Origin: Candidatus Helarchaeota archaeon
GTDB lineage: Archaea > Asgardarchaeota > Lokiarchaeia > Helarchaeales > RDOG01
Reading direction: 5' to 3'
Assembly: GCA_019058315.1 (NCBI GenBank)
Contig: JAHPZH010000002.1
Coordinates: 973,910 to 1,037,909 of the forward strand
Length of the DNA stretch: 64,000 nucleotides
Within the stretch, counting starts at the first letter, position 1. Every line of letters starts with the position of its first letter. The position numbers and the translations under genes are program-made. Below, piece by piece: positions 9,078 through 64,000 of the stretch. Below the pieces are notes generated by a model. That model ran no database searches. It saw only the letters and a program-made list of their open reading frames with translations, and was not told the DNA's origin.

Positions 9078-9229
9078 TACATAAACTCCAGTTTAATAAT
9101 TTATTACGAATTAATATATTCAATATATTTTTATTTTCTTTGTTATTTTCGTAAATATTTTTGCCAAATAAAAAAAGAAAGAAATTTAGATGGAATTGAA
9201 CGACATTGTATTAAAAGTTTAAGATATTG

Positions 9230-10871: not shown

Positions 10872-11027
10872 TTGGATACAGGAAGAAAAGATGAACGTGG
10901 TAGAGAGCTATACAAAGTGACTTGTGCAGATTGTGGCAAGGAAACCGAAGTTCCATTTAAACCAGACGGATCAAGGCCTGTATATTGCAGGGATTGTTAT
11001 AGGAAACAAAGACCTAAAAGGTATTAG
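10872..11027 (+). CDS. CxxC-x17-CxxC zinc-ribbon small protein
   Basis: Below the ORF track cut-off. TTG start after GGTGA; MDTGRKDERGRELYKVTCADCGKETEVPFKPDGSRPVYCRDCYRKQRPKRY (51 aa) has the family signature CADCG..TEVPF.P...RPVYC..C. Confidence 0.92.
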   Translation: MDTGRKDERGRELYKVTCADCGKETEVPFKPDGSRPVYCRDCYRKQRPKRY

Positions 11028-11122
11028 AAAATTAATGTCATGTAAAACGAATTAAAGTCATTATATCTTTCTATTTAAATCAATTTTTTTATTTTAAATT
11101 AATTAATATTATTTAATTCTGC

Positions 11123-23922: not shown

Positions 23923-23995
23923 TTATTAAAAAAAAATCTAAATAAATTTAAAAAAAAATATTTATAAATAATAAAAAATACTAATGTGATTAAAT

Positions 23996-25894: not shown

Positions 25895-25950
25895 TTCACG
25901 TTCTTTCTTTTTATTTTTCAAAAATTTCTAAAGATTTGTAATATACATCC

Positions 25951-28900
25951 TTATGAAAATGGAGAATAACCAACTATTCTTCCTATATCTCTCTTAAACG
26001 TATCCCAAGACATACCTAACATTATTTCACTCCTAAATTTTTTGGTTCTAGTTATTTTATATGAATAATATAAAGATCTTTGCAGACTACGAATATTGTT
26101 TTCCATAGTCTTTGGAATAAAAGTATAATCATCTCCAAATGGATTATAAAATAGTTTGGCATCAGGAAATTTATAAACTTGTGGTTCAGTAACTCTACGA
26201 CCAAATAAAAAGGAGGGTTTCTCTATAAGTTGACCAAAAATTTCAATTGACGCTCCTGCTTGTAATGGTCTTCCAAGAATATCCTCATCTAATTTACTAA
26301 CCCGCTCTAAAGGTTCGTAAAACGTCTCTCTGATTGATGGGATGTCGCCCGCTCCTTCCAGACTTGTCAAATAAGCTCTCTGAGCTCTGACCTCCTCTGC
26401 CTTCTCAGCTTTAGACCTCATATCAAAACCTAATTTTCCACCGACCTTTTTAATGGCAGTATCTATACCTTCATCTAAAATATAGGAAATAACTGCACCA
26501 ATAACATAATTTACTACATGACCATAGAAAAATTTAGGAGCATAACCTCCAATTATTGGTCCTGTGTTTATATACCATTGTGCTGCTTGAGGGATAGGAT
26601 TAGAAAATTCGAAATTCGCAAATGCATATCCCGTTCTTGGGGATCCTGCCAATTCTCCAGCTAAACCAGCTATTCCTCTAGCTGCAAGGGTTAAAAGTCC
26701 AGCGTGTAAAAATAATTCTGAAACAGTATCTGCTACAGTATAAGCTATCAATGCTATTGCAGCAGGTGAGGTTGCCCCATAAGAAATAATTGTTGAAGCG
26801 ATAGCGGCAATACAGACTCCGATTTTTACAATTGGTTCGAAATAAGCTGTATACCACTCCCAATCCTTCATAGTGAGTTTATGTAATGCTTTATAACTTG
26901 AATAAGCAAGTTTATAATCCTTATCGATTTCCAGAGGTATACCCATATATTTTACATCTAATAAATGACCTCTACGAAATTCATTCTGTTGTTCTAAGGT
27001 TAAGGAATTGAAATCTTTTCCATAGTTTTCCATTGCATATTGTTCTGGGTCGTAATCGTATATTTTAATTGTCAACCATGGTATTTGAACTTCTGCTCCA
27101 AGCATACTTAGCCAAGAATTCCAAATAAAATTATCTAATGGATAACCAAGAGAAACTTTATGGATATCTTTATTTAGATCCAGTTTAAATGGTTCTGCTT
27201 CATTTGAGGCATATACATAGGTAATATAGAACGTACTATCTGCCTTAGGAGTGTCTCCTACCCATTGGATCGAATTATAATATGGACTCTCTTCATCCTT
27301 TATATGTTTATAGTCAATATCTTTATAAAAGACCGTCTCATATTGAATAGTTATGTCATTTCCACCAGGAGAGTAAGGGGCTCCGTCCAGATAAAGGTGG
27401 ATGGTAAAAATGGGTGATTTTAATAGAAATTCCTCGATTTCGACGGTATACTGGTATCCTGAATTTATTTCATCTGTATAATCAAATGGTTGATTAATAT
27501 TTTGATCAATAATAATCATATTTTCATGATCTAAAGGGATATGAGTTAATTCATAAGAATTTGAGGTTGTAGATTCAAAAGTGTCAAGTTTTATGCCTTC
27601 TACATTAATAATATTTCCAGATTTAAGTAAGAAATTATATTCTTCTGAAGGTAGATATTCATATGCATCTCTTGCTTCTTTCATCCAGGAAGAATCTTCT
27701 TCCTCACCATATGAATTTTGAAAATTGCTCTCAATCCATATATATGCATTATTCACATCTGGGAAATGGGCTTTTAACGCAGCATCGAGTCTAATTTCGA
27801 ATGTTATATCCTGCAAAATAACGAATGGTAATCTTAATAATGTACCATAAGTATTAAACATTTCCCATTCTAATGGCTCTGAGGTAGCTATCCTTAATTG
27901 TAATGGTTCTCCAAATTCAGACCAACCAAATCCAGGGTCCCGTAAGGTTTTTTCATTAAATGGCATATCCGGATCTGTATATTGCTCATATAATTCCCAG
28001 TCTGTGTAATAACTCCTATAATCATGATCATTTATCCCCATATGACTAAAACCAGTGAAATACCCATACCAATCAGCACCCCATACACCTCCAAATAAAC
28101 CAGGTTCCGCAAGGTCAGAAAGTGGGAGCGGAGGACCAAATAGAACTTCTGGCATCATTAAAAATGCAGTAATTGGCATGACAAGAAAGTTTAAAGCATG
28201 AAAAAGTGGAGCATACCAAGTTGGTAATACAGTACCCCAAGCTTTGTTATAGATTGGTCTATTAAATGAATAAGTAGCAGGAATAAAGTCAGTCGTGACT
28301 GCTGGCCAATATCCTTCCCAATCAATACCAAAAGCACCAGTAGACGGATTCATATCAAGTAAATCGAAGCCAAATACACGTTTATGGATATTCCCAATCA
28401 TATTCTTATATCTATTACTTGTTATTGTGGTTAATTGTTGAAGTGTAATGAAATTTGTTATATATGCAGCGGTGAAACTAGTATTTAAATGGAACAAAGT
28501 AATCGGGTTTTGACTCATAGTATATGCTACAAATCCTCCACCATTATCATTTGCTTGAATAATACAAGGTATAGTGACTCCATCATATGAATTTCCAAAT
28601 CGGGCAAAATCAACTATTATTCTATCATAATAATCAATCAATGGTCTAACAAGTACTCCATAATTGGGAATATAGGGATCATTTAGACCTTCCCACATAT
28701 ATTTTCCATTATCAGTAGGTATTACTTCTCCTATACTTTTATTTATTTTGTAAGATGTATCAAGCAACGCCCATTTTATCCAATCCATATCCCTATTTTC
28801 TTCAAATTCGTCTTTATCCCTAAAATTAGTCTCTGCAGCCCAGTAATAATTAAATTCCATAGTTATTGATGGTGTAATAATGACTCTATAAGAATTATAT

Positions 28901-31900
28901 TTGTTAACCCAAATTCGGAGTTTATTTGTTTTTCCATCTTTTATATATTCATTAAAAGTAATGTCATTTACATGCCCCTCAAATAATACAGTATCTTGCA
29001 AACCGTGAAATTCCTTCCACATGTCAATTATTTTTACATGCATTAATGGTTCTTCCATATTAGGAGGTAGATTATAATTAACATTAAGTATGCTTAACTC
29101 CTCTAGAACTCCATAAGTCTGCGGGATAAATCTAAATTCTATAGATCTTCCGGGAGCAACTCTTTTCTTAAAGTCTATATCTATAATAAGACTATTCAGA
29201 TAGAATTCTTGCCTTATTAGATTAAGAAGTACCCAAATTTCATCAGATTGTAGGTGCATTAAGATATGTGGATCATCATCTATATAACCACTGAAGCCCG
29301 TTAACCAAAACAAACTAGACCAATCAAAAACAAAATGAGCCCCAATAGGAATACCAGCACCGTCAATATCTGGTATAAAGCTTACCAATCTTCCATCAAC
29401 CCAAATTCCACCTTTTAACCAAGCACCTCCAAACCCAAACTCGGGTGGACATCCACCAGATATAATCATGCTGTTAATCTTACCACCAGGCATTATGGGA
29501 ACTTCTACAGATTCATGTCCAATAGTTTCAGTATATGGAAATTCGCCACAGTAATAATAATACCATATATTCATGATTCCATGATGAATAGAGACAGTCC
29601 ATGAGAATGATGGCTCATATGCAGCTTGAGGACCGAATATTTGGTAGTGGTATGAATGACCATTTACATATAATCCCGTATAAGATTCTTTTTTACCATC
29701 TTGATCTCTATCAGGAGCATAAAGGTCGAATGGTGTAAATTCTACAAAACTTCCTTGTTCTGAGAATATGGGATAATAATATTCTTTCATTTCATTTATA
29801 TTTTGATAGAAAATCTCTCCTGGAATATCTAATACAGTATCAATTCCAAACATATCTGGTGATGTCTCTCGTGGTGTACCTTTGGGATGAGAAATATGAG
29901 TAAATGGACGATTACCAGTAAAAATAAATGATCCATAACTTTCGAGATATATTTCTAATAATGAAGCCTGAGCAAAGAAATGAATCCTGTCCTCATAACT
30001 ACCAGATAGAGAGCTCTGATAATCATTATAACGACGTGCATATATGTCTGGATAAAGATCCGAAACTTGTATTATTATTCCATTATATTCAGAAGTCATC
30101 GGTGTAAATGGTCTTCCTCCAATTCCACCCAGAGACCAAACACAAGTAAATATGTCTCTATACATATAGTCTGCAGTTACATTATATCCTCCAATGATAT
30201 GGATTTGATTTGTCATTAATAATGCTGTTGATGTATAGATAGCATGTTCCTTCATAATCATTTCAGAAGCATAATAGGAACTATCGGAATACCATTGATA
30301 AGTAGGATCATAAGCAATTAGTTTAAACCTGCCAGAAGGTAAATTTGTAATATAAATTGGAGAGGTCAAACCATTCCTTGGCGAAAGGCTTTCAATGCAA
30401 AACCTAAACCAATTTCCTGGCTGATGCTCTCCTTCTGCATCGGTCCATGGTATTTCTGATATTTTAATTAAAAAAGTATGTATTTCTCTTTCCAAAAGTA
30501 ACGTATATGTAGCCGTACAAGTTAAATCGGTTGCAATATTGAGTGTGTTATATTCTATTTCTTCCCCATCAACCCATAAAGATACAGGATTTTTCTTGGT
30601 TTGGATAGTAAATGTATACTCATCTGTTGAAGTGATTAGTAGATTGGTGAAGTAATATTTGTTATAGTTTATTTTTAATTCATCAGCAGCATAATGATAG
30701 CCGGATATAGTGACATAATCCATTTCTGAACGAATTATTGGATTATACCATCCATTCATCATTTCAGTTTGTGCATATCGTCCATTTTGGCTTAAGTGGT
30801 TTAAATTAAAATTATAACTAAAAGGTTCATCACTTATATCATCACCGTCTATGTCTCCAAATTTATGGGGTTCAGTGGGTGATACACGCCAATCAATAAC
30901 ATAATTATTTCTCGCATCCGTTCTATAATCTATTCTAATAATTACTGCTTTTGACGGTGCTTTTTTAAATTCTATGATTCCTAATGACTCAAATACATCA
31001 TATGATGAGGGATCTTGTTTTAAATCATCGAAATAGACACCATCTTTATCATTATCCCATGTTAATATTGGAGTATATTTAAGTTGGAATACAGCATTAA
31101 TTCCATCATTACCATATATTCGCTCTTTTTCAATTCTTTCAGGATTAAAAGCTATTGGTCTTTCTAAAAATTTATTAAAATAGAATGTAGTAAGCCCGAA
31201 GCTAGTTAAAGGTTCACTATAAGGTGCGTATTCACGGTATATTAAGTCGAAATATCCATCCACACCTGTCGATTGATATGAATTTAAATATATATTTCCG
31301 TAATAATATGGTTTCTCTACACTATTCTCTTTACACATCTGATCCACATAATATGGCAAAAATACATTGACAAAATTCCATGATTCTATATCTGTTTCCA
31401 ATGGAATTTCCCAATCAATGATTGAAGACTCAAAACTCTCCGCACTTGTGAACCAAATGGTTCCGAGCAATGTTGAAGCATCAAAACCATATAGATCGAC
31501 ACCTAAAGCGAGGGGTGGGGTTTTTATTCGTTCTATATAAATTAAATACTCACCATCAAGGAGATTCCAATGATCACCATCATGGAATTGAGAATTTGAA
31601 AAGCCATTTAATTCAGGATCGTATGCTATCATTATAGTTTCATTGGGTGGACCATACAATTCAATTATATTTGTACTTCCTATTAAAAGTTCAGAACTTG
31701 GAATGTCAATTGAACACCAATACCATTGATTATTTAAAACTTTGACTTTGAACTCATAATTATTTACTCTACCTTGAATTCTAGGTGATGTAGAATAGAT
31801 TAAAGCTTTAAGAGAAATAGAATTATATTTTAAATCCTCTGGATTATTACCAATTATTATTGACTTTTGCAATTTCTCGTCAGTTATCAACTCCAAATAG

Positions 31901-58900: not shown

Positions 58901-61900
58901 TCAGGACCTTCGAAATCATGCTTTATATTATTACGGGCCTTAATTTTATTACTTTCTTCATAACATTCATATTTTGGTGTTGTGGATTCATAATAATTTG
59001 ATTCAATTTTTAATTTATCAATTAAAATTTCAAGTGTTAAACCATTTGTTAATTTTGTAAATAGGATAATTTTAACACGAATTATTCCATTCTTTATAAA
59101 TGCTAGATTTATCTCTTCTGATAAGTCATTTGGGACAGTAGTGATATCCTTTGGAATAATTGTTGTCAAGTTAGTCCAAGAATTGAATTTCCAATTGTAC
59201 ACCATTATATAAAATGAAGTTTGATCTTCCGCATCACGGTTTGTTCCAATTTTATATTCTAGAGAAGTATCAATTATATCTTTATCTAATTTTTCTAAAT
59301 TAAATTCAAAACCAACTTGGGACATGTAAGCAGTTTCATCTCTTAATTTCAAATAATCCGTATCTAATTTATTAGAAATTTTATAATATTCGCTATCTGA
59401 ATTGTCAAGATCATTAAGATCATTATTAGGATCATCTTGACCAAATAAGATTAAAGATGATTCAGGAATTTTGTCTATATACAATTGATCCCAACCAACT
59501 CTATTAATATTAAATATTGAATTATAATTTTCTGTTAAACTCAATATTTCTTCTACTATTTTACTTGGTCCTACAGGGGTTGGGATATACGATTCTAATT
59601 GATACTGTTTAAGATAGTTTTGGTAAGATTGATAAAATATTTCACTGTATGGAACAACTTTATTTTTATAAAATACAAATTCAAGTGGTCTTGTATAAAC
59701 ACTCACGTATTGATTACCTAATATATTAACCCAAGTCTTAAAAGTTGTATGTTTCTGTCGATCATCATTAATATTTAAAAACGTGTATGGTAGAATACCA
59801 TTTAAATTTATAAAAATACCTGAATGAGATGTGAAAATCTCTTGTAGTTCCAAATAATTGACTATGCGAGTATTTAAATAACCTTCTAAATATAAATTTT
59901 CTAATAACATGTAGGCAGTCGTTAGAGCTACATCTAGTGAAGTTCCCATAAATGGTAAATCTGGATCCGCAAATATGTAAATTGGAACTAATTTATTATC
60001 AGAGGGATCGTATATAATCGAAGAATAAGTTTTTGCTGCGGGAAATTCTTTATACTTTTCTATTATGACATTATTTTGTGTTAGATTCAACTCATTTGTA
60101 ATTACTCCTATTATATAAATTTCTTTAAATTCTGTCTCAACTTTTTTCTGAGGGTTCATAGAAATGAAATGATCTACATGGATTTTTGCTTGACCCAAGA
60201 TGAATTGTTCAACATTATTTTCATTTAATCCAGCCCATATTATTAAGTCGCTCGTTCTGTATACTGCTCTAATTGAACTACCTAAACTTAGAAGGTTTGG
60301 CTCAATAAAGATGACTTTTTGTTCAAATAGATCGATATCGTAATGAACATTTAATTCTAATATGGTCGACACTCCGTCTTTTTCCATAATAATAGAATCC
60401 CCTTCAGTAGTATCCCATTCATAAGGTATCTGGGCTAGTTGTAGATCAGTCTCTAAATTATAATTGTAAGTTAGTATTTCATTTTGTGTTAATAATTGCC
60501 CCTCTACTATTTGTTTTCCTTCTTCATTATCAAAAAAGTAGGAGATAAATTCATCTACATTATTTTCAAAATTACCATCTGTATCTTTGGCAATTTTTAT
60601 ACTATCTGGTATATTATTCTGATTATAATCTGAAATAATGCATCCTTTTGTTACAGTAGCAAATGCAATCGTACCTGATAAATCCTCCACATTTTCCTCT
60701 AATAACGACAAATAAAGTATATCCACATCTTTCACGAACACTGTAGAGTCTTCATAGTGGATTTCAACATATTGCTGATTAACGCCAGCTTCATTATCAT
60801 TAATTGCTGGGATCATTATAAACGAGTCTCTGGGGACTCTGTCAAATATAATTTCTATTGTATCTCCTTTTTCAACAAAAATATCAAATTTTGCCAAACC
60901 TTGTTCATCTCTTGATATATAACCATTATAATGGTCAGTGTTATTATATATCATACTTGAAAAGTCGAATTCGCCGTATCCTATCTCGTCAGTTCTTAAA
61001 TTTCTAATAGAAAATCCCATTTTCGCTGTCGAGGAATAATATGTCCCATTTTGAACTAAGAAAACTCCTCTTATTCCAGCATAATCTCCACTCTCGTCTA
61101 CCTGGGTTCTAACAACCACGTTATGTCTAGATAGGTCATACCAAGTCGATACATAACCATATGCTTCGCTTAAGGGGTGAATGGGATTACTATCACTATC
61201 TTTATATGCACCAAATTCTAAGCCCCAGTTCTTTATTTCATCGAAAGGCCAAGTTTCCATGATTTCGAACTCAGGTATCAATGATATTAGTCCTGAAATC
61301 CCTAAAGTCCTCAGTGCAGTATTTCTGAGAGAAGTTTCAAGAGAGGAATCCAATTCTATTTCATCCATTACAAAATCATTAAAGATAGCATCAGATATCC
61401 ATCGATTTTCATATATTGTGGAAGCATAATCAAGATAATTTAGATATTCTACTTCTATAGGTATTTCTGGTAAAATTGGTTCTTCAATAGTTCCCAAATC
61501 AATCAAATCCATTAAACCTGAGACGAATTGAACAAATACTTCAAAAATATCTCTATCATAATCAGTAAAAATTGGATTTCCTGGATCTTGCAAGCCAAAT
61601 TTTAAAAGATAGTTACTCAGGTCAGAAGATCCTAATAATAGTAATTGTAAGATTGATATCCCTAGATTATAATCTAGACCATTTCGAACCTCTTGTAATA
61701 ATCTGTAGTTCATTTGCCTCAATATTTCAGCAAAAACTTTTAGAAATTGTTTTTTAGTTAAATTTGGATCTTTCAAAATATCTTCTACTGGCTTAAGAAC
61801 TTCTAAAATTAATGGATCTTGGGTAGATTTTGTGGTGGGGACAGAGGATGGAACTTCTCTGCCTTGACTCATCATCATTATAGCTCCTTTCATAAATTCA

Positions 61901-64000
61901 AGAGCTTCTGGAGTTGGATTGTTAAATATTTCTAAAATGTAATCATTATAGTGTATTACATACTTTTCCATACAATTTGCAATCTCTTCACATTGGTTAG
62001 GATTTAAGAAACTCTGTGAATCTTCAGGCGGAAATAATTCTCTTGGAGTTTCTTCAAATAATCGATGTAAGTTATTTTGATGAATAGATTCCCACTCATC
62101 TTCCCAATACTCCCTTTCTAGGCTGCTTTGGAACATAACGATTCTCTTTTCACGAAATGCGGCTAATACTTGACCCAATTTCAATTTTCTTTCATTCGAA
62201 GTGATTTTTCTTTCAATTTCCTCATTTATTTCATTACCATCTTTATCATAACCTATAGTAACTTCCACTATTTCTGATTTATGATTGGGGTCTGTTTTAT
62301 CTAAATACAAAGGTACGTAACGACGTCCATTCGGATGGGGCATATATCCTTCAGCACTTCTTTTTTCTCCACCAATAGATGATATATATTTTTCATTAAC
62401 TCTAATAATATCATCTTCCAAGACAATATAGGTTCGTTTGAGAAGATCCATTAATTCTTGTTGTGGTATTCCAATTTTAGCAAATATCTCCAGTAAAAAT
62501 CTTTGCCCTTCATCACTATATATATCAAAATTAGTCCAATCTTTCTTCGTCTTCTGTACAGTTATTTCATTTTTTATATTTAGTGGAGCAGTTTCTGTTA
62601 ACCATAAGGTTACAAGATAAGAGGGTATGATTAATTTATCATTGATTAAAATTGGTTTAGTTCCAGAGAATAAACTGTCTTTTTGAATAGAATGTTCATT
62701 TAATTCGACATCCTCCTCTGTTACACCTAAAATATTACCTTCAAGCATCTTTTTTTTAGGATATTGTGTAGATTTTGCTGAGAAATGTATTGAAATTACT
62801 TCTATTATTTGTTTTTCTACATTTAATGCTGGAACTAAAGCTACCGCATCAGCTAAAAATGTATTTTGATCTTGAAGATCAGGACCAGGAAAAGCTTGAA
62901 CATATTCAACTAAATTAGGGTAGAGGATATGACCTTGATCCTCAAATATCTTGCTCAATTCAGGTAATAAATGCGAAACTACTGCTAATTGAATTGCCTC
63001 TGTAAAATATTGGTATGAAGTATACATTTCAGAGTGAATAGGTTTTTGAAAATGACTGGGAGAAATTCTAAATGTCAATGCAGATAATAAATATAGAATA
63101 TAATCAAAAGAATATTGATATTCTTCTCCTATTTTTTCTCGATATTCATCAGGCAATTTATGTCTCTCCTTTTTTGGGAGAATTCTAGCCTCTATAATTT
63201 CTCCAGTTTGCACGTTTATTTTATTAAATGCAATACAAACAGGGTGCCTATCTACGGAAACTAATTTGTTTTGAATTGGATCCCAAACTCTTTTTGTCAT
63301 TAAGAAATTATATAATGAAGGAAAAGTATTGGCTAAAATTTCATAATCGTTTTTTTCATATAAAGAAACCATTTTTCGTATTTCTTCTTCAGTGAGCCCA
63401 CCAGGTCTAATCATGTATTTTAGGAGTATATTATGACTTGCTTTTCGAGTAGCACCCATTAAGCTGGAAAGTGATATTCTTCCAAGTGTAGGGGTATCTG
63501 GACTCGCTCTTTCTTCCATTAAATGTAAAAACTCAGCTAAATATAATACCTTAATATTATATTGTCCATCAATCGAATATTCTTTTTTATCCTGTAAACC
63601 TTCAATTATCCCAAATAATTTATTTTCAAATTTGAAATTATTTTTTAACTCATCATAAACCCATTCACAGTGTAATTTAGAATAATCATATTCTGCATCA
63701 TCTAATTGTTGAATTAATAATTTATTACCTCTCTTTTCAATAATAGTAGAGAGTGTAGATATAAATTCGACATATCGGTTATAAGCGATCCTTACTTGTT
63801 CTTGCTGTTGCTCAGTTAAAATTATTGTTTTTTCTGGTGAAATGATATCGGGGATATGAGGGATTGCAGGTAAATTTTCAATTTTCGACTTAAGATCATT
63901 TATGTCCTTATCAAATTCAATAAAATTATATTTTTTATATTCCTCCAATAAACTTGGATCTTTATCCAACTCTGCTAGTGCATATTGTTTAGCATCTTCT
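25951..64000 (-). CDS. Giant (>12,680 aa) multidomain extracellular/surface protein; 5' end outside window
   Basis: 38 kb stop-free frame in AT-rich DNA. The frame stays open upstream of the track's TTG at 63969 (EDAKQYALAE-LDKDP) to the edge. Contains Ig-like, CBM-like, PA14-like, DNRLRE-like and baseplate-like repeats and DxDxDG motifs. Confidence 0.95.
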   Translation of the reverse strand, partial: EDAKQYALAELDKDPSLLEEYKKYNFIEFDKDINDLKSKIENLPAIPHIPDIISPEKTIILTEQQQEQVRIAYNRYVEFISTLSTIIEKRGNKLLIQQLDDAEYDYSKLHCEWVYDELKNNFKFENKLFGIIEGLQDKKEYSIDGQYNIKVLYLAEFLHLMEERASPDTPTLGRISLSSLMGATRKASHNILLKYMIRPGGLTEEEIRKMVSLYEKNDYEILANTFPSLYNFLMTKRVWDPIQNKLVSVDRHPVCIAFNKINVQTGEIIEARILPKKERHKLPDEYREKIGEEYQYSFDYILYLLSALTFRISPSHFQKPIHSEMYTSYQYFTEAIQLAVVSHLLPELSKIFEDQGHILYPNLVEYVQAFPGPDLQDQNTFLADAVALVPALNVEKQIIEVISIHFSAKSTQYPKKKMLEGNILGVTEEDVELNEHSIQKDSLFSGTKPILINDKLIIPSYLVTLWLTETAPLNIKNEITVQKTKKDWTNFDIYSDEGQRFLLEIFAKIGIPQQELMDLLKRTYIVLEDDIIRVNEKYISSIGGEKRSAEGYMPHPNGRRYVPLYLDKTDPNHKSEIVEVTIGYDKDGNEINEEIERKITSNERKLKLGQVLAAFREKRIVMFQSSLEREYWEDEWESIHQNNLHRLFEETPRELFPPEDSQSFLNPNQCEEIANCMEKYVIHYNDYILEIFNNPTPEALEFMKGAIMMMSQGREVPSSVPTTKSTQDPLILEVLKPVEDILKDPNLTKKQFLKVFAEILRQMNYRLLQEVRNGLDYNLGISILQLLLLGSSDLSNYLLKFGLQDPGNPIFTDYDRDIFEVFVQFVSGLMDLIDLGTIEEPILPEIPIEVEYLNYLDYASTIYENRWISDAIFNDFVMDEIELDSSLETSLRNTALRTLGISGLISLIPEFEIMETWPFDEIKNWGLEFGAYKDSDSNPIHPLSEAYGYVSTWYDLSRHNVVVRTQVDESGDYAGIRGVFLVQNGTYYSSTAKMGFSIRNLRTDEIGYGEFDFSSMIYNNTDHYNGYISRDEQGLAKFDIFVEKGDTIEIIFDRVPRDSFIMIPAINDNEAGVNQQYVEIHYEDSTVFVKDVDILYLSLLEENVEDLSGTIAFATVTKGCIISDYNQNNIPDSIKIAKDTDGNFENNVDEFISYFFDNEEGKQIVEGQLLTQNEILTYNYNLETDLQLAQIPYEWDTTEGDSIIMEKDGVSTILELNVHYDIDLFEQKVIFIEPNLLSLGSSIRAVYRTSDLIIWAGLNENNVEQFILGQAKIHVDHFISMNPQKKVETEFKEIYIIGVITNELNLTQNNVIIEKYKEFPAAKTYSSIIYDPSDNKLVPIYIFADPDLPFMGTSLDVALTTAYMLLENLYLEGYLNTRIVNYLELQEIFTSHSGIFINLNGILPYTFLNINDDRQKHTTFKTWVNILGNQYVSVYTRPLEFVFYKNKVVPYSEIFYQSYQNYLKQYQLESYIPTPVGPSKIVEEILSLTENYNSIFNINRVGWDQLYIDKIPESSLILFGQDDPNNDLNDLDNSDSEYYKISNKLDTDYLKLRDETAYMSQVGFEFNLEKLDKDIIDTSLEYKIGTNRDAEDQTSFYIMVYNWKFNSWTNLTTIIPKDITTVPNDLSEEINLAFIKNGIIRVKIILFTKLTNGLTLEILIDKLKIESNYYESTTPKYECYEESNKIKARNNIKHDFEGPDYYYNYLVSDPINLILDKGVSYKLKFDYSILENYANSYFYFIVTDYPNENGLLYEDRPETAGWTTWNTDDSEMISTKEIEFTVPTSGFISDDFSLVFGIKNAGNITISNIFLEKFNDITPLEMKDNNYYTLTPEGGYLESTFIFNGIPLPELRNYHIDLEIEAYKYAELSTGYIRIRGTSSKYVHKDTVFSTTINGRDAEFEINDPDPPFWGYEIPSGGVLWLPIISKIPQYPVTPRDYIEWSFNIPSSSNRYDQDILVDNPSTMDGGVTNQFTGVGYCDLVIAFYDYDENNWNSYSSIYIEDEEELFEIHSVLNDNIYPIISEDGEIKVKIFKLDEDVMYNDQIFFDFLNIKIHSIDNFNDFNYAKNHIAEMDVYNKQLTVDNQVLFRTDCTIFEGITSTQSFWISEYPIDTTQFSEQDLKIEWAKSEDFSDPFTGQWGKGLVSFVHMYPTENTKYSINFNDECQQTSKILFSMITGIPLSTSITANEYDLWKGGLSGLYSLFEKGDYGLNVESTDKDGDGIEDVIVEVPGSGLTYQFTSYAAGAPNIKLIERGPNWEKVMNTTDGTYSKYYYSSNVFINYGDFWLPYHFHENSIDDFFIKHPSGTFIINSTGYYIFNNTELILNKSHWDLYVNNGGWQLEESIKTEFETYIEIDGTLVTITNSTSVDGLQDPLIIRRKDYTNSGILSTDWRFGFGDFKITVDFLSTADETKEYQIRWSGYVPNIDNIEVGYPSPYKPLYDSDFSDGSWVLNSSHPPNFFNSTSYGIKFNQTEIFDWFDWKSNVSIDINENCILTYQPDHCPCVSAELYFNNVTLENGTVLETEQINFNLNETNTLNIYDYIAKKIGTKANKINQIWIHYEEVGNYTDFTNCTYSDDPHNHFFLYLGFGISEWYKTQYITDSFLEIDSLSSVNFYKNDTFFLNIDFNDVSNNISRKININPGLNNVKFNIIFYNLTLQKGQSIKIDPNEKIFKDELVEDWSWTFWSTYSNWDWDWAYIPIEVWLPGPWGIPVKWIVLWPIKLYDWCWYPPYRRNNRGSQLYPVGYPLAPLPDSGNSLFDNHDDLGTPLSRTSFNYMGGTHYLLNNLVNVYDPRIMQSDAYWGDFADPEMLIGDWCAMGTNIPFHIFPGYYGDFAHIIDPQTHYPMNIFVYSGQQIENWERTDIIWDQNQQPSPLSYLDVWVRDLPIDNGIDGFSDWYYVSNPGPGLPGGWVENPHDRDNYGVEGHLIIPEWSNFDDRPAQVDRELIYKSDLTDGTWSFSLNTDASETLEPEDITQYFIASGSENAYQLGKRIDTLYNVKMKEHFEGDGLVNSFILTIKPDLDLDSIEEVTVTLNALLDPPDPQAIQTYEFIYTDSPSSTGGFQYTRTGDNSEIINLFQGVDPYLPSGDDLVNIKYIVLGGDILEAEYSIIDSETVFFKYPPKEGSEISVSYQHEPIYFELERTGVYLTGTEEFDWFEIISSETIEINPDTFFQGKIFQSDFAITSLTIEEYTDELGIKWTSNPIEIDLTIMDYFNLYEYLLPETEPLGFIIKELNKIKFRFEEIDPILNRIDEFWFDFEDYTLTHQFVIPWDPLVDSVYIPGTGYLEYGVDYDIEYLGEGYAKILFLTSPPYVIMDQLSTVSYRTYNPEFGPNLGSQFLEFSFSITEWDLSSSLPGGPYYYYEPTLNPGGEYQLMDWMNNFFSYGADSDGGGNDQGDYPNHFIWCPYPIPGFGYPKGDRWEGSQWHVDSGDWDDRITSTVMTDTGRYKFWFNMEAGLASGETKNYDPDYKMRDKFNEEYFQMILHANTGSNKALLDWYQIDSLRENGWNIPWSNNDEFEDLFDPLYTGTDTPPIRGEFHQPFHWKQKSIGTSNNPNPNRRPQLVVQYTEDFPPEANISAVMLDYSGEAWKTAYIKLNENDDKGDYEQGDTISTSSKKIIFQVSTNDDYGFNSDEIPDDAEESIETHHHSSYQEDLFGGIYQWDRHVEAIKINVYYWDWSTSEWLFHDTHTNWWQHNTDPKELIEDWKYDIIDRNFEFDLNAPVGDTVYRIEVDTLNPYDKQRWLSQVEEKELFVLYIELDTTSPIVNDITVTDIGEADNDGVAEYGEEIQLQVTAYDPELLVIPTINPPPVVYPEHSVVDGYVYLWHDDDIIYRTDSYSVIINQLLVNPDTIIIRDIYDEIIGMKIKLHGLNPIFEMSTEPILGLGSGPSTFIWTQKDSIDDLLYTGDWYLEEVAGEYAIYVYLALSDVTPEIKPDGWAEGFMNFEYGTLDSSYKYTPLKKSDGTNAIIENSDGSYTIPFNVPAAKLKNYLFTDGEVTLRAKSGIYDNPRLKGAQISDVGKGNHGISPIYNIVITKQDAIFNDNNIYIQSNKGRPIQFYDLVIMGSQLVTPFNSPITEGCVKYHYSIDFDTNGQPINWIEIGESNLDSNGINFIETYLDFLPPDLTFSIKAEFLGNDYYKPNFVYIIKTATKNDNLAINVKDKYGNTLETIKLQARLLQSDYSIPVANRNIKFSILNYADDVPLVDNMVALTNDDGWAEYDYLCNLEFGGSYPFVYKIKAEFVGTDDYYETPQYTIGYLFDNSLDTFQIPTSRPGIMNITYFGNNLNSSFMIATTEGYLDKVNNIELIDQTLDWVEILVETSTQDNSKHADCYFTIYDSGFVDIKVKTYDIDESELVRAIFSLNSSAHVYSDDLLPYGNLDIENTFEYSDMGWLMSHNPEWMILGDDENLWGISMWGYHPYSLSTIPLRSTWWINSPKYQALSYGMNIGSESSTTIRVGPISESHINGRTPPYTELFLTDIQADGTISTWLSPFEDSLDTIISDTYFTLNETLMFGEEGINWEEGDDCFSTSFDAFYQSISYNISQSILDGLNHVVRNWTYNFKPVNITQSPFMTWAWKKGGITSEDFELIDRNDMLFDINYVYDYSWFIGTKYDTWDEIQNIISITELNTGKVLKRVKKNPIDNEYTVDLENHLITFGGEPYIGVDNYNITYSYSDSAGTDLSIELYVRDTETGVSATITIDNSNYGIPIDWELKSINLHKLIYEYYVTQIYGPTPPPNLDEHDFELLGIGFNNHDQGYSLFDFISVYGIELDEQYYITSLDNTNINTNVNSFYSLMDDGTLILNIAESDDLEKNEIEIIVDEELEPENSYILQSEIMLYDSDSSIFDHGRFSIILVYDDGTEDQFSFSTHPNLATNLVPLNQFAKIQSPIQISSSKKLEKIKFKLEELNERDSEFMCFLTHYRIIKEKGNTLDSMTFTNNQVIPNFSEFYIVDTVIAEADVIKYYYTVIYMDSNAWIALIPEYYRGISDFEIYLDSRSIQQGDHIFLNEGYHYIMVRIETSDPMVQWKLKIFNSLIENQLTTNNEITSLTALATFYHDPIKETAIEIEEIAEELYQTYLIPINESWDGEYVYIDNAGEYKVENLEVKWNYYTSSSNWIDINDYMKNIYPTQAIKRDSFRGLAKTNQKFVLSCRPIYEIYYVYYNDYSDTDEDGVTDEHIYLTQVATLDELYSLGRGYYHLDYETGLITIGGQSIPWGDDNYFVSYLVKPINVMAYGWTGIWSPVESTATLVFKMKGCAVVNFNGYEIINENFGNNEYIEKEILVWLEKGYNYLFIKNGIEDGDFKFNIRIKDVIKLRKETVETGSIVNDEIILLKIPINIKNLLIDGTPFNDYIINELEKKLILTDPPIGFYDITYEYLDSELIKIYNNKYEEMVPIATPEYDYNFENNVYAAGSLSSYAAGDVFTSFKTESNYNLLEMGEYWELYYDPEIYRYKQLIFSNYEYINVDGYWVSYEYTPISNNDFIVKNPTSLYHFTPNGVKIFDITGTSLKELENFQVQYKNWIWGWCDMDVDTINYQINQDSNYINITSIQTLTDGSLLKIKYIMGSGSTKYEINFISIYKREYRIQWNLEGYENDIYILSNDGGTITSANGELIVRLNYEIDKFHHFTDLGERASITFGNFNLDAQEEVKILAALSTREPICNDTYVSNQNPATFYGYKDTLQVNYIDNTALFPDAEGNFVALKANNFYQQVGDSSGDLIDTHERDDNSLILTEDSSDNLEALFYFDTGIEASHIMNLGLETYISDDNNWFLWFPDLQISIWNWAQNDWFELGKTIRGCEKWYNYTISNIMYIHEFASSNGQVIIRIKNKYYDNLQPNNYNLDYLNLIVNYKNIFKYSFIKFPLPLENDIEIVYEDTSFNIFNTETKIDNYNDKVSMYYFLNSDIINDTITFDDIYSYVTSGEIVTYGNILENDYRVTDHSDGIYEVIESQYNPVDNTSYISVTYDYDIKETCNYIEIETDFNLTSEYNDDMGHFELQIFNWDTCSWETLSIWYKQDLNKLCKIKCSNIINTDFGKYVMNKLVRIRYWFARVGLWSFKMHLDKSIVISDLSDSFIDEIQDVSFNEWYSFKSLEFSTLLTDLAKTGEEYATFLFKGDKSEWSFSSSDAYMNNPYLEVYYSKRIPVIISDPSKDVSFYETEILSVSVQDYYGNSVGAGLEIIFEYYDDVLGEFISLGTAYTNDFGIAELELFITFFPGEYIIRAVFEGNEFFLPYSVEGIMNVIDTTPPEVNILFPDPTIYHRHEILQFVFTSKDNVFVDYHLIYIDDEAPIYVEAYPFETPFEEYQYDEVITIYIPDPAILEHTVKIVAVDYAGNEAEVTGNFKINLQDPIVEITNPIPPSYYTSNGQILLEWTASSEVEIQYWNITNFDVAIEEFLPKNTRSYLLNLDEGFHNIQLYTEDESGRIARKNIFIGVDKTDPSCIILAPTQNEHIPDDSIELYWIVHDDDTCPSGIENVLIEKRYDNDPWETVSEQFKLNYTISVPIAGNWQIRATVWDIAGNYNSETIDIEIDLTDPVVQIISPISQSYCGEIVTLKWQSDVSEFNIFKNGKLINDLTIDYNPTTQLYYTELDFDKENTYIIRVEAIDEAGRESSDEITLFVDIKSPFLTILSPESGYVTTETINLKYIFDEDFPLYLEVWVEEWDGAQFVREVTYRNRYENFPPPLNINVNLAEGKFKVYIELKDHLNTLVSKYVEIIIDNTPPEINILNIDPTPISSLINTEVVAVEVGFSDLNKIARIISLVQGIVDIVIENPIGNSYTFNFVLNEGINDLNFIVVDESGNYREVALSLNVDTTPPIIYKDSVFVNGKYPAVTKLIFVDEECSVRFDYSELNLAYFMLTDWYKEDYEDTIEINTLSDPSLYTLQNMVKSGGHWEVPMDEYEYEKALLDYDWSSVVNLARTDYQGDFGGELTGTYESDWLNQIAAMSSNIWGSGAHTAGVVHSGSHSVPDGTYRQIFSRSSSTSGSDSVQGRLLHETYQYANFTNADLMSFNWEICTELDLYNSQSAEIEFYIENELVWYEEYYNLLGLDEIISDTVIIDTTTYTGMKELRFIVRLNNEADSGNGVNSIQVTLYPIKIERLHEYGYLTLQPINLHENVDSIEFYRTGYAPTDTSINMAYRTADSETELLGNAWINLESSEQQTIPDNLVKDWIQVAIILYTNLNDLDTPYLFDISIYYTYYYQSGIFYEQPCVLPYDETVQGHHTMKLDIYDLVGNSDTYDFDIFVDVGEPELVNILPLEGERIGSTNYVVKWDFIEQALYSEIPDLEETYICQVLIDGQLQGTFTTSSSQTASYEVELSKDSTEIKILVADMAGNIKEVTRNIVVDLESPTIQIDSPINNGFLCTNQHILSLGWSSYDEGGIGNYFLAIDDNEPVEILEGIYNYDLNLVEGIHVITLTAVDLAGNTGSDYLIYNFQPELPTILITNLLENNFVNNLDIEWIYEEGIYQLDYFIVSLLNLDTSQIVYTSEKLTDSTHSILGMPDGNYEIIVTLYSDSAPPQTHSITNIHYDTHADAVSDITFDSGDYWDYYIDIIWQCTEINLDYYTIIFDDGTNMYEFTTTNNYYKDLPIPSTDGNTITIIIKTHDKAGNEATIQVTGVADTTAPIVEINAQFRNWQWYTPEGSQDPILEEQIHDILNSYEIIIIYKNRYFSIEYEGIEIATISDVGEVQIINPNYAPMEKVFAYIANIIKFNEDLKPNSNVGQLLITDLILQYENIDQFSWSYVENYLNEIETYKIYYNDIILGSITDLNFELLELFEGSDQVITIAAIDKSGHIGITSIVLQIDLRHPKVINTRGLATANGGMEFSVELADDCLELVTVNLEYKVTVNGTLYVCNENGNWVPVDDYQGSYPDQGIYNAEMNLIYTSKNINEGSKISSAFENVIGTYLIEISDLPDNAQLEYRFAVTDHSAHSAYTSDWDSDVMLIHPTCLTGFYMPYRKLSNSIILDDFEQDINRHYYWLDDFKDIDPSWEFDSSLIMTSYDKTVTKDGVNTGILDFYGDFDAGAWLTLYRDFNLAIEEDMVFHMRAKLPTGIFTEPEFPDSQMPNFLIYIIFEISDEDGVISNIQYDITTTLTSTISLTESGEWLNYNLNLFDLFKQNGIDEPKTILKTSIRIKARDVSPEVSHFTGVKHFYIDRIGMYKFGWKVRDGDGIYRLENDGLEGQYCMNLETGPAYSSEFFIVNSTDEVNININSNPVVRFTIERINYNTIPSIGFVLNDILINFVWGPKSQISYDFDLYDYVWNIQIADDEIGVKSFEYDLLSAIDVFNKRNEAFTINATVITDVLLICRSIRLEEVSHPSPTHTPLQTPSYELAIANFDFLTFSPRSQISIPYNIEDSSIEGYSWNTQSLGFNIWSLNGTVMDGFDALFSLNSTIIPDSPDVEEFRSWEELDNSWTYEELSGGGGAPILVINTDPTDITDGILNIAYYTLTYTGNLIEEGYNKIKIVCAAGSGGQLMINIAVNYGFLQPIFVDGGEGEHIIDLREYGDITAFMLTAISQRIKIDQIEFGQFENNFYTNNIVGPRDFHITKLTANMTEGDNIKIVQKMWSELLLVEDIYVIDTVFGNINITRYMQYDENEIVLTFPLTNFTTYKPNDFNILLGSSVYENIEGLSTLFDMDGKFLKIESVHNSPYTGFEYIEVDFEFEIVDPSPLSDISQAETSYLDIYGICNSYIPQTWIAIYNPLTTNWDIIEQGDSNILSLTEPFEIENLQDYIDGSNTLKIKLIAAKATTEKIRLYIDFIQLNSSFSSQSTFFSPVKNGYSQYWWFSQEPFAIINEYEVLDESADGLTDTYQLSHLPIAWGSNDHIYIDTGSGDVEQTGYSVNLDTSIVTLSAPAPLNSKVSAKYRWVNNKMAKGLVMFRQSDYYDSRQVLDLTDYTIDHTIVDTIEIIEEDLEYEKYPYDTVLPDYDFSTNTHLLHDSNLEYVILDDFTGDWYSNWICEKAQMTRTSGSGGHHVGEITHANNAVEFSDHTTNKGGSSKSSTFEHIIYQDVDLTGADTISFLWGMKYEVDGSTWCDLNLELYIHEPEDDINTISPVEQIHKHWTANQVDQGYLNVDISNYEGTKRVTFRFYTSGWVTDDMLNTRGFFAYIYLNPVNIDVYYPTGDVIDEHWQLKEYTNDDILPDYDFSTDTRLYHAGNEGIYDLNPDDPLTEWEWDTDYWICEKAQMTRTSGSGGSHIGEIIHTNNAVNFHEVLSSKNEAKLGTFEHIIYQDVDLTGAGSINFLWSMNYTSRGTGYIDLYLELYIYDPGTNLDITTEIPVEQIHNYWTNYIEFDYGYANIDVSSYSGEKRVAFRFYSDGRVPKKSYTSNYYSWICLYPVHIDAYYPTGNITTEPIYLGEKIDFAAITKIDQNTPNTEIEFRYKTADSIAELGDIEWSSWYSQDKFIILQGTIKSWIQWEILLKSFGVDTPFLFNSQVDYRYKSGSWIVSNAPFEESDLSKIVEVQSDSVEFSQGESMGLAFIYKILYGEVNFESSNNGPDHIKFTAQALDPSVDSYWYPDISQQTITIQSDNFLEYDIKIIPDYLFTPCQAAVDIYFTDATWMSSGNAVDQNGISASPQTDLFGNKWYHRRIDLSNFETKTTSCFEVALEHDYGKLIMYIDNVTITDLNGEILHRIYTHGMPEYASDLGKNSDNMEYTMSEIVSYPINSYDIIPDTQIISEGEDYVITESKGSGKNWDIEDNTMFYSGGMTELKRTMTWNSEETGYDVKTIPFNLTSSMLFDTYQEGSDWVAIFNDNGLGMGAQLLSGAIDSLDLIQGTKEFYEFFTNIENVDELSDWDYIDGGGTPSFEDEKLILTGEQNLITKRSWHKGYNLKLVIEELDTGSAWVPPAGELYELANFYPYYFDENNYFKFYIKAVADGACGYDIYYKFVIAKDGIIEERQVFIESSATLPYNLEIDLNIEEDSWTATINGNTYDSTLFSLDPTWFQNYCNYLGQVKIEGEYKTSYDDISITHLGTLENANNTKILFCKDHPIVQKGDSFSYVLRLWFGNCLNYDTTVKFPTVNFNQKIPLHKLIEDFETTGSFIQSDSEVIEGLYSGIIDSMVTYPISPLFIEDNPSLKWFWKPTEIIKDPADSTESSEWPGEFSDWARVGSIVDDPTRDDELEVETVTATQLLINNGYIEFPNSDRRYIHTTEFNYGTIETPLPTVGFKRIDLVIVNKTGVFLISGEEIEEIEDAIPPNFLTGIKLAEIELTSSGIENIEDTRLFAEKVKYNYFYGYEESQYKSYYIINNTLSIKDENLGYDPSSWEIALDQYPILPWDDSIDSVLLDGNPLQLGIDFEIYILPDSRAVIKLLNYFDGEIQATYRVSEDRIETQTFIVGVFIYDLIYSPAVVWDPIIDTVIDNEGSSNEQILEYGTDYTVQINEINEELQIILTQDAESWVNNLGSGGHDLTFHYRVYNNELDIETLEIDREYELLEYPIVDWDDEIDNLYSDYDRLIEDVDFEVVYDIDGRGIIQLFHPIEGFNLYSNYRYYTNGIATKEIASNIEILNHEVVEKAYLHFNINSTVEDIILTINGISYPMTVEENIGKEYTLEINPTDLFYGFNSQSTSITYQMGTSKYIFASYPVLEWSSEIDNVMIDGVELNYNQDYLVTINENGDAEIEFLNIYSDGTIFIINFRKARLNSIGITSQNFDPFYMGIIYKDKERFYSYIAWETGATEINGEFDFYLELITDEKLQKSIIIGNNPEDLKYNSISLKALIYSTSPRIQGRVNNYEFKVKVLNNQWYWCSIDIPSSELLIGSTNIIELYGPPNETIMIAYDPELNGFSNSQFHDGDHWNLLDGEYLIYIERIKTPPLALGVDLYGFDASTLLGTIWFTSAESFESSIIDWEIPLETDIESWNFVNVFLPYYVDQMCKENSVEKPYYYGNIYLNSYQSTGVDGYFDLIYREYAPYSEPLTSFGLTTFYFNKFLERPIAFNPERIEKERIYGNDGINAVFQLKYTPILTWDNDKDGVYFDDLKQDPSSYDVFESLGIIEFKKAPSKAVIIRIDYRTDARNNYVIDWRVSPTEPHKFGDIDGDDISDEPFSYNFNLNHLSQNGRYAQTEMMNGWYNPIIRSEMDYVTISGYHYAADELKINYNKYYFTNLLITSTDEYTFTIQTKKNPVSLWVDGEEIEYNTLNIATDLTCTATYTLLLEREIHTFLIKISEIPWTDAEGEHQPGNWFRFCIESLSPRNGLTSPIYITNLPSGRFKLIAYDPTYQWYSDSSYYASEMIMKEHAIYTSTALLMTNQIHIIGGYNVTADYMYRDIFTCVWSLGGIGGRPFTPMTSEYNGIIIQVSDLYPDIYARRYNDYQSSLSGSYEDRIHFFAQASLLEIYLESYGSFIFTGNRPFTHISHPKGTPRETSPDMFGIDTVLDIPGEIFYQNINEMKEYYYPIFSEQGSFVEFTPFDLYAPDRDQDGKKESYTGLYVNGHSYHYQIFGPQAAYEPSFSWTVSIHHGIMNIWYYYYCGEFPYTETIGHESVEVPIMPGGKINSMIISGGCPPEFGFGGAWLKGGIWVDGRLVSFIPDIDGAGIPIGAHFVFDWSSLFWLTGFSGYIDDDPHILMHLQSDEIWVLLNLIRQEFYLNSLIIDIDFKKRVAPGRSIEFRFIPQTYGVLEELSILNVNYNLPPNMEEPLMHVKIIDMWKEFHGLQDTVLFEGHVNDITFNEYIKDGKTNKLRIWVNKYNSYRVIITPSITMEFNYYWAAETNFRDKDEFEENRDMDWIKWALLDTSYKINKSIGEVIPTDNGKYMWEGLNDPYIPNYGVLVRPLIDYYDRIIVDFARFGNSYDGVTIPCIIQANDNGGGFVAYTMSQNPITLFHLNTSFTAAYITNFITLQQLTTITSNRYKNMIGNIHKRVFGFDLLDMNPSTGAFGIDWEGYWPAVTTDFIPATYSFNRPIYNKAWGTVLPTWYAPLFHALNFLVMPITAFLMMPEVLFGPPLPLSDLAEPGLFGGVWGADWYGYFTGFSHMGINDHDYRSYYTDWELYEQYTDPDMPFNEKTLRDPGFGWSEFGEPLQLRIATSEPLEWEMFNTYGTLLRLPFVILQDITFEIRLDAALKAHFPDVNNAYIWIESNFQNSYGEEEDSSWMKEARDAYEYLPSEEYNFLLKSGNIINVEGIKLDTFESTTSNSYELTHIPLDHENMIIIDQNINQPFDYTDEINSGYQYTVEIEEFLLKSPIFTIHLYLDGAPYSPGGNDITIQYETVFYKDIDYKHIKDEESPYYNSIQWVGDTPKADSTFYITYVYASNEAEPFKLDLNKDIHKVSLGYPLDNFIWNSWLSMLGAEVQIPWLTIKIYDYDPEQYAMENYGKDFNSLTLEQQNEFRRGHLLDVKYMGIPLEIDKDYKLAYSSYKALHKLTMKDWEWYTAYFEPIVKIGVCIAAIASTIISYGATSPAAIALIAYTVADTVSELFLHAGLLTLAARGIAGLAGELAGSPRTGYAFANFEFSNPIPQAAQWYINTGPIIGGYAPKFFYGHVVNYVIGAVISYILDEGIDTAIKKVGGKLGFDMRSKAEKAEEVRAQRAYLTSLEGAGDIPSIRETFYEPLERVSKLDEDILGRPLQAGASIEIFGQLIEKPSFLFGRRVTEPQVYKFPDAKLFYNPFGDDYTFIPKTMENNIRSLQRSLYYSYKITRTKKFRSEIMLGMSWDTFKRDIGRIVGYSPFS
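35920..37205 (-). repeat. Tandem intragenic duplication of a ~215-aa jelly-roll-like domain
   Basis: LPDYDFST...WICEKAQMTRTSGSGG...FEHIIYQDVDLTGA...PVEQIH...KRV.FRFY...YYPTG occurs twice (about 37205-36595 and 36550-35920); a diverged third copy lies near 42670-43270. Confidence 0.9.
40550..45262 (-). repeat. Array of ~12-13 bacterial-Ig-like domains within the giant ORF
   Basis: Recurrent D.T.P.V.I.SP ... A.D.AGN units (DTTPPEVNI, DKTDPSCII, DLTDPVVQI, DIKSPFLTI, DNTPPEINI, DLESPTIQI, DTTAPIVEI; DYAGN, DIAGN, DMAGN, DLAGN, DKAGN). Confidence 0.85.

Follow-up and report, generated by a model that had tools for sequence, protein, structure and literature searches.

A 14,414-residue Helarchaeota protein with family-conserved ends, a candidate membrane-anchored surface fibre of Asgard archaea

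Giant fibrous adhesins of bacteria, of the RTX/BIg-repeat type (LapA, SiiE, MpIBP), are built from near-identical repeats, tens to hundreds in number, and leave the cell by type I secretion, and polymorphic toxin systems of bacteria include CdiA/CdiI, Rhs and MafB. Among archaea, giant and poorly annotated genes of Asgard lineages are already on record (Wu et al. 2022, PMC8813620, Extended Data Fig. 7), the Asgard supergroup has been observed to encode more proteins longer than 10,000 amino acids (aa) than other archaea do (West-Roberts et al. 2023, bioRxiv 10.1101/2023.11.21.568195), and Laminin_G_3 or Big_3_5 domains are typical of the huge proteins of archaea in one survey (PMC11573180). 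A cultured Lokiarchaeon viewed by cryo-tomography has complex protruding surface proteins and no S-layer (PMC9834061). Asgard archaea have no regular S-layer, and their complex surface proteins are thought to mediate cell-cell contacts for syntrophy and in models of eukaryogenesis; almost none of these proteins has been characterised. Here we describe a giant gene on the minus strand of a 64,000-nucleotide (nt) stretch of DNA from a Candidatus Helarchaeota archaeon, called the window below (G000:C5:973910-1037909, in a genome of 5.79 Mb with 30% GC, 12 contigs and an estimated contamination of 6.6%). We read its product, hereafter the giant, as a member of a new Asgard family: an extracellular fibre for adhesion or tethering, anchored at its N-terminus and mostly free of N-glycans, the C-terminal helices of which probably re-enter the cell's own membrane. 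We give this reading a probability of roughly 0.6.

In the open reading frame (ORF) listing, a minus-strand frame runs without a stop from the TAA at window positions 25951-25953 to the window edge, a distance of 12,682 codons, from which the original prediction had claimed a single gene for a protein of more than 1.4 MDa. The contig sequence bears this out and also supplies the 5' end and the upstream genes, the recovery of which had been proposed: the gene overruns the window by 5.2 kb, in which an N-terminal module was revealed, and measures ~43 kb in total. The in-frame stop that limits the frame upstream lies 14,439 codons away, and counted from the first ATG, which would have the window coordinate 69195 and thus falls outside the window end, the protein has 14,414 aa, a mass of 1.66 MDa (1.664) and an isoelectric point (pI) of 4.37. 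This places the gene among the largest archaeal genes on record.

25951..63999, minus strand: the giant ORF as far as it lies within the window, aa 1733-14414 and the stop codon TAA (ORF listing, contig sequence, Logan identity over 25501-45500)

Since about 0.08 stops per codon are expected at random in DNA of 30% GC, a chance origin of a 14,439-codon open frame is impossible. A look-up in public sequencing runs returned one holder of the gene, run X1, a sediment metagenome that is probably the source sample. A Logan contig of this run (132,615 bp, depth 18) displayed 0 differences, 0 joints and 0 indels against window positions 25501-45500, a comparison of a 20-kb stretch with the product of a second assembler working on the same data, probably from the same sample, and hence not with independent data. 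The giant ORF is a genuine single gene, with no sign of misassembly in the 20 kb compared. The host had been supposed to be an Asgard archaeon, and an acyl-CoA synthetase-like neighbour gene is indeed 65% identical to that of Ca. Helarchaeota Hel_GB_B; we take the host to be of Lokiarchaeia/Helarchaeales type.

Zones were set by the composition and hydropathy of the giant, and by these measures the three compositional zones originally described are real. The part outside the window comprises a basic N-domain (aa 1-420, Lys/Glu-rich, pI 9.6), three strong transmembrane (TM) helices with Kyte-Doolittle peaks of 2.6-2.8, and an alpha/alpha toroid domain: TM1 (aa 421-439) follows a Lys/Arg/Pro-rich stretch, the toroid (aa 440-857) is acidic, and TM2 (aa 858-876) and TM3 (aa 883-901) are joined by a Lys-rich loop of six residues. 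Next comes a helical zone of about 1,680 aa (aa 902-2580), rich in Glu, Leu, Lys and Ala, and then an acidic body (aa 2581-14100, pI 4.2), rich in Tyr, Trp, Thr, Asp and Gly, before the chain ends in Gly/Ala-rich helices and a basic tail. The hydrophobic C-terminal helices that had been predicted are present, and they are conserved in P0001, a homologue described below.

61456..63999, minus strand: distal part of the helical zone (aa 1733-2580 of 902-2580), recognised by composition, with 1 N-glycosylation sequon against 9.8 expected and no family matches
26896..61455, minus strand: acidic beta-rich body (aa 2581-14100), pI 4.2, with little internal repetition and depleted in sequons
26434..26859, minus strand: Gly/Ala-rich helices (aa 14113-14254), Kyte-Doolittle peaks 1.5-1.85, 44% identity with P0001
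25954..26433, minus strand: basic C-terminal tail (aa 14255-14414, pI 9.0), no family match, no paralogue in the genome, unrelated to the tail of P0001

Applying the positive-inside rule, we infer a cytoplasmic position for the N-domain and the TM2-TM3 loop and an outside position for the toroid and all that follows TM3, because the flank before TM1 is Lys/Arg-rich and the TM2-TM3 loop is Lys-rich. In the arrangement that we propose, the basic 420-aa N-domain would reside in the cytoplasm and be followed by TM1, the prenyltransferase-like toroid would stand outside the cell, and the TM2-TM3 hairpin would expose its Lys-rich loop to the cytoplasm. About 13,200 extracellular residues would come next, a helical base of ~1,680 aa and then ~11,500 aa made up of acidic domains of beta-sandwich type, most of which have a unique sequence. 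The N-terminal helices would fix the fibre in the membrane of its own cell, and the fibre, if extended, would reach hundreds of nanometres. Its C-terminal Gly/Ala-rich helices would probably turn back into the same membrane, leaving the basic tail in the cytoplasm; such a return is probable because both termini are basic (pI 9.6 and 9.0) while the ectodomain between them is acidic (pI 4.2-4.9).

The frequency of N-glycosylation sequons (N-x-S/T) bears on this location. The body contains 63 sequons against 112 expected from shuffles (z = -4.7, ratio 0.56), while four control motifs occur there at expectation and D-x-S/T is raised, and the helical zone holds a single sequon where 9.8 are expected. 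Nine other large ORFs of the same genome have sequon z values from +8 to +18, and its other large surface proteins are about two-fold enriched. Observed-to-expected ratios are 0.93 in ORFs without hydrophobic segments, which are cytoplasm-like, and 1.76 in ORFs with strong hydrophobic segments, which are membrane or secreted proteins. The sequon depletion of the giant suggests that glycosylation has been selected against, and consequently that the protein meets the glycosylation machinery, because the sequons fall below even the cytoplasmic baseline (0.56 versus 0.93) and a cytoplasmic protein is not expected to avoid them. Among the homologues, P0001 has 4 sequons against 9 expected, and the distant G336 and G384 giants are sequon-enriched (z = +4.5 and +7.6). 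Sequon depletion may be a property that separates a binding or tethering fibre from coat proteins.

The giant is not without relatives. A phmmer search with its last 1,200 aa against 1.84 billion representatives returned 11 proteins, the best at 48% identity, and one of them, P0001 (1,347 aa), is 46-48% identical to the C-terminal module of the giant over 1,040 residues. This module, about 900-1,700 aa in size and ending in weakly hydrophobic Gly/Ala-rich helices, is common to P0001, P0003, P0004, P0007 and others.

26434..29211, minus strand: conserved C-terminal module (aa 13329-14254), 46-48% identity with P0001, profile matches in the phylum

A profile of its most conserved motif found matches in 14 of 400 genomes of the phylum, mostly in the distant family f31, and in none of 160 other genomes of the giant's own class; a longer profile of the module matched 19 of 87 genomes of the distant order that contains f31. 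Both ends of the giant are absent from the 40 nearest genomes, and scans of genome, metagenome and viral collections with the module or an alignment of its close relatives revealed no relative. The N-terminal module (TM, toroid, TM-TM) likewise stands at the start of giant ORFs of family f31 in the genomes G336, G384 and G313, with E values from 7e-29 down to 6e-196 for its profile (alignment A5 covers G336, G384 and a paralogue).

Giant ORF of G336: 9,987 aa, complete
Giant ORF of G384: 9,749 aa, C-terminus cut by the contig end
Giant ORF of G313: 10,138 aa

The N-termini of the G336 and G384 proteins are signal-anchor-like, and the 420-aa N-domain is unique to the Helarchaeota copy, being found in none of these three giants. 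The genome also holds a 379-codon paralogue of the N-terminal module with a TM helix and a toroid (L004 1501-2484, equal to G000:C3:1452568-1453551, minus strand), which is 32% identical to aa 411-738 of the giant; similar small toroid ORFs are present in family f31. Between the two ends, blastp detected three islands that keep the same order in the giant and in G336 and G384.

59572..60201, minus strand: conserved island 1 (aa 2999-3208), matching G336 aa 2155-2344 and G384 aa 2103-2196 by blastp
48835..49131, minus strand: conserved island 2 (aa 6689-6787), matching G336 aa 4853-4931 and G384 aa 5453-5549
29710..31725, minus strand: conserved island 3 (aa 12491-13162), common to P0004 and the G336, G384 and G325 giants

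Collinearity extends to a further genome. P0004 (2,677 aa) lies on a ZHAO22 scaffold, where 52 nt separate it from the preceding gene, which exceeds 10,255 aa and is cut by the contig end, and the gene pair is collinear with aa 7972-14190 of the giant in five or more segments; identity of the collinear body segments is low, 22-31%. At the split of the ZHAO22 pair (L007 9749-10001) 200 nt are common to both open frames, the outcome expected of one frameshift, and the split may be either a real pseudogene or gene split or an assembly error. Many of the f31 matches sit at contig ends or contain stops. The distant collinear homologues rule out that the giant is an orphan. In summary, sequence comparison indicates that the giant belongs to an unannotated Asgard giant-protein family defined by two conserved ends and collinear islands. 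These conserved end modules offer handles for antibodies, tagging, cryo-electron tomography (cryo-ET) and targeted structure work.

Between its ends the giant is almost wholly dark to domain databases. Pfam was run on long chunks and on 750-aa tiles, and about 90% of the protein has no match to Pfam, NCBIfam, PHROG or PDB sequences; only two Pfam families, Prenyltrans and Big_13, rise above threshold. Prenyltrans (PF00432) scores 27.2 bits on the toroid in a 750-aa tile, against a gathering threshold (GA) of 26.5, and 23.7 bits on the long chunk, and the toroid profile matched geranylgeranyl-transferase (GGTase) beta repeats in the PDB with E = 1e-5; phmmer of the whole giant against PDB sequences gave nothing beyond weak, sub-significant matches to GGTase-beta repeats. 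The hairpin repeats are alike at the sequence level in the giant and in the prenyltransferase beta/terpenoid-cyclase toroid (PF00432). Unlike prenyltransferase beta, the toroid of the giant would be extracellular, lies between TM helices and has a single Cys in 418 aa, and it is probably a structural or binding domain. Big_13 (PF19077) reaches 40 bits in its 4,000-aa chunk and 31 in a tile of 750 aa (GA 27), with sub-threshold hints of Big_7, Glucodextran_B and P_proprotein elsewhere in the Pfam output. The original prediction had spoken of glycan and immunoglobulin (Ig) adhesion; Ig-like domains are indeed present, with Big_13 above the Pfam threshold, and the glycan-binding part is unsupported.

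41086..45153, minus strand: Ig-like repeat region (aa about 8015-8480 and 8950-9370), with the sole Pfam matches of adhesin type (Big_13 above threshold, Big_7 and Glucodextran_B below)

NCBIfam gave no match to the giant, the C-terminal module profile none in the PDB, and Laminin_G_3 and Big_3_5 are absent from the Pfam matches of both chunks and tiles. No RTX or type I secretion system (T1SS) signal was found for the giant, fold searches returned generic beta-sandwich matches only, and ESM-Atlas feature searches with the last 700 aa, the first 420 aa and the 160-aa tail gave scores of 0.79-0.84, which is noise. A word-index homology search with aa 1733-6732 against proteins of 5,500-17,500 aa found none, in an index that is insensitive here, as the C-terminal module profile returned P0001 alone from it.

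By self-blastp the body is almost repeat-free, with one tandem duplication, the Ig-like repeats and a few weaker pairs. An iterated hidden Markov model (HMM) search (alignment A8) further delineated an 80-aa module, with a conserved Trp-Asp, the motif 'DG..L.YG.DY' and a terminal YR as hallmarks.

35896..37260, minus strand: tandem duplication of a ~230-aa unit (aa 10646-10876 and 10864-11100), 51% identical, by self-blastp
32041..33228, minus strand: four tandem copies of the 80-aa module (aa 11990-12385), by iterated HMM search, alignment A8
54025-54258, minus strand: fifth copy of the 80-aa module, by iterated HMM search, alignment A8

This module is the repeat that had earlier been called 'baseplate-like'. 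Its match to the adhesin-type tandem-repeat chain PDB 6xi1 is a weak, summed one: the E value of 3.6e-8 adds up four equal matches of 7.8 bits each, all to repeats that are identical, and we rejected it as independent evidence.

A role in surface attachment, which had been proposed, appears from these sequence features to be the most plausible function of the giant, and its topology, extracellular location and adhesive role are inferred properties. Several observations weigh against our reading. P0001 (L006 1-4231) is apparently a stand-alone gene of 1,347 aa with no N-terminal signal or TM helix, which fits poorly with Sec export of the C-terminal module and raises the question how, or whether, this module gets exported. 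(The 187 nt upstream of the P0001 gene have no plus-strand open frame of at least 40 aa.) The C-terminal helices are weakly hydrophobic (1.5-1.85), which makes it uncertain that they return as an anchor to the membrane of their own cell. The searches brought no ligand-binding domain of the giant to light, so that 'adhesion' is a term taken from architecture. Both AlphaFold2 models are poor, that of aa 13215-14414 (28-sequence alignment) having a mean predicted local distance difference test (pLDDT) score of 49.7 and that of aa 11866-13065 (11 sequences), which spans the stretch called 'tail-like' and 'baseplate-like', an unusable 38.8. Finally, there were no RNA runs among the holders of the gene in the public-run look-up.

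Best placed among the other explanations, and still unlikely in our judgement, is an intercellular tether, with the N-terminus in the membrane of the producer and the Gly/Ala-rich amphipathic helices of the C-terminal module inserted into the membrane of another cell, a syntrophic partner or kin, so as to form a bridge of up to several hundred nanometres. The C-terminal helices, at 1.5-1.85 on the Kyte-Doolittle scale, are far less hydrophobic than the N-terminal TM helices and the anchors of neighbouring gene products (2.6-3.0) and are yet conserved in the family, resident coat proteins of this genome do not usually have an unglycosylated surface, and close cell-cell contacts are important to Asgard cells (PMC9834061), all of which a tether would accommodate. 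However, the tail, with its basic pI of 9.0, is similar to the cytoplasmic N-domain and so fits re-entry into the producer's own membrane, no fold or family of a fusogen or pore-former was found in Pfam, NCBIfam, PDB and fold searches, and the helices may be merely a bundle packed by small residues. More doubtful again is the specific version in which a single polypeptide bridges into the membrane of a partner cell and its fibre is kept free of N-glycans to bind or thread; if true, it would represent a type of device for contact between cells that is new to archaea and has a bearing on syntrophy in Asgard lineages.

We consider improbable a contact-dependent delivery device resembling polymorphic toxins, in which the fibre would present a swappable 160-aa C-terminal effector and the hydrophobic helices would serve for translocation. 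The similarity of the giant to P0001 (44-48% identity) spans the hydrophobic helices (44%) and stops near aa 14,254, beyond which the tails are unrelated (163 versus about 67 aa), a pattern compatible with tail exchange. This breakpoint, however, is seen in one close pair only, and the more distant pair P0003/P0006 can be aligned through the whole C-terminal region, as ordinary divergence predicts; the comparison of homologues that had been suggested for swapped terminal domains is thus compatible with exchange in the one pair and with ordinary divergence in the other. Moreover, the tail, which may conceivably be a toxin of a novel type, has no toxin match in Pfam or NCBIfam, its Atlas score of 0.84 is noise, no tail paralogue or orphan cassette is present in the genome, and the stop codon lies 56 nt from a convergent gene, leaving no co-directional gene of immunity type. 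The toxin-like ends of the original prediction consequently find no support, and its other machine-like parts fared no better. Phage-tail or baseplate modules are not borne out: over the full 14,414 aa, PHROGs matched no family of known function and one sub-threshold family of unknown function (E = 0.0018), PHROGs run on the five copies of the 80-aa module found nothing below E = 0.1, two patterns of the C-terminal module brought up no relative when viral contigs were scanned, and the fold searches returned generic beta-sandwich matches only. The candidate nuclease core (PD-(D/E)xK) at aa about 2056-2272 has no Pfam, NCBIfam or PDB-sequence match, and its region would be extracellular in the proposed topology.

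A giant cytoplasmic or cortical scaffold, in which TM2-TM3 would form no hairpin and the long chain would stay inside the cell, is very improbable. It would agree with the scarcity of sequons, unlike in the clearly exported proteins of this genome, and with the signal-less P0001, but the fall below even the cytoplasmic baseline points to selection against sequons instead of neutrality, and the distant homologues are sequon-enriched. The six-residue Lys-rich TM2-TM3 loop and the signal-anchor-like N-termini of G336 and G384 fit an outside location, and Big_13 repeats and a pI of 4.2 are typical of exported proteins. An assembly artefact or a decaying pseudogene read as one frame is scarcely credible: a MAG-type (metagenome-assembled) genome with 12 contigs and 6.6% estimated contamination, and relatives that are frequently split or fragmented, would allow it, but the stopless 14,439 codons at 30% GC, the identical 20-kb stretch that a second assembler placed inside a 132-kb contig, and the homology of both ends, collinear with other giants, stand against it.

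The surroundings of the giant gene contain LRR, WD40, AsnC/HTH (helix-turn-helix), radical-SAM (S-adenosylmethionine) and S8 subtilase genes. There are no phage, secretion-system or integrase families among the matches of the flanking genes. The window is free of tRNA genes, and so is the 20-kb locus L001, which holds the 5' end of the gene and about 10.7 kb upstream. A tight row of three genes converges with the 3' end of the giant gene; each of its proteins has an N-terminal signal-anchor, a strongly hydrophobic C-terminal TM helix and a KKK-type end, and they contain 14, 26 and 27 sequons. The nearest of them (23996-25894), convergent and 56 nt from the stop of the giant, thus encodes an ordinary anchored, sequon-rich surface protein. 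The LRR and WD40 genes lie 2.6-6.6 kb upstream of the start of the giant.

19117-25894, plus strand: row of three genes for proteins of 535 aa, 1,065 aa (S8 subtilase) and 632 aa, convergent with the 3' end of the giant gene
L001 11809-12705, plus strand: LRR protein, 298 aa, opposite strand to the giant and upstream of its start
L001 15834-18149, plus strand: WD40 protein, 771 aa, opposite strand to the giant and upstream of its start

At locus L010 a 1,177-aa S8 gene is convergent with the C-terminal-module homologue P0007. The neighbourhoods of this locus and L010 have nothing in common except the generic S8 catalytic domain. Elsewhere in the genome, a second giant ORF of 13,746 codons (G000:C3:1001347-1042584, minus strand) has no BLASTP similarity to the giant described here at E <= 1e-5 and is not a paralogue; its 13,746-aa product is sequon-rich, with 420 sequons against 222 expected. 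A further large ORF has 6,782 codons (C1:219122-239467). Within the window, a 230-aa protein (11966-12658, plus strand) gives a sub-threshold match to Pfam INSIG (insulin-induced protein; 24.1 bits against GA 28), which, if real, would be a eukaryote-type membrane protein family, and a 1,124-aa protein (4451-7825, minus strand) gives weak matches to TPR_12 and the MIT domain, both below threshold; MIT is a domain associated with ESCRT (endosomal sorting complexes required for transport) and is of interest in Asgard archaea.

Compared with described systems, the giant is comparable to the published Asgard giants (PMC8813620; bioRxiv 10.1101/2023.11.21.568195), which range from more than 3,000 to more than 10,000 aa, are non-repetitive and are poorly annotated. 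They were, however, listed without a definition of this family, for which we describe a specific architecture of N-terminal and C-terminal modules with collinear islands. The new elements are a family that two end modules define and that is patchily distributed, together with this member's size and its avoidance of sequons. The aloposon (Otus/Ephialtes; PMC8813620) has a tandem pair of giants, a downstream tRNA integration site and an upstream ParA-like gene; our locus differs, by gene layout alone, in having one giant gene, LRR, WD40 and S8 neighbours and no tRNA gene in the window or L001. Halomucin and other archaeal huge proteins (PMC11573180) are alike in being extracellular, longer than 5,000 aa and of presumed coat or adhesion role, whereas in the giant Laminin_G_3 and Big_3_5 were not found and N-glycosylation sequons are avoided. 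With CdiA, Rhs and MafB systems the giant has in common a very large surface protein, hydrophobic C-terminal helices and a tail that differs from that of one close relative, but it is without a recognisable toxin domain, an adjacent co-directional immunity gene or orphan cassettes. Adhesins of the LapA, SiiE and MpIBP type, finally, resemble it in acidity, beta-sandwich richness, anchoring at one end, length and Ig-like (Big) domains, while the giant stands apart from them as an almost repeat-free chain with an N-terminal TM anchor and unique conserved end modules.

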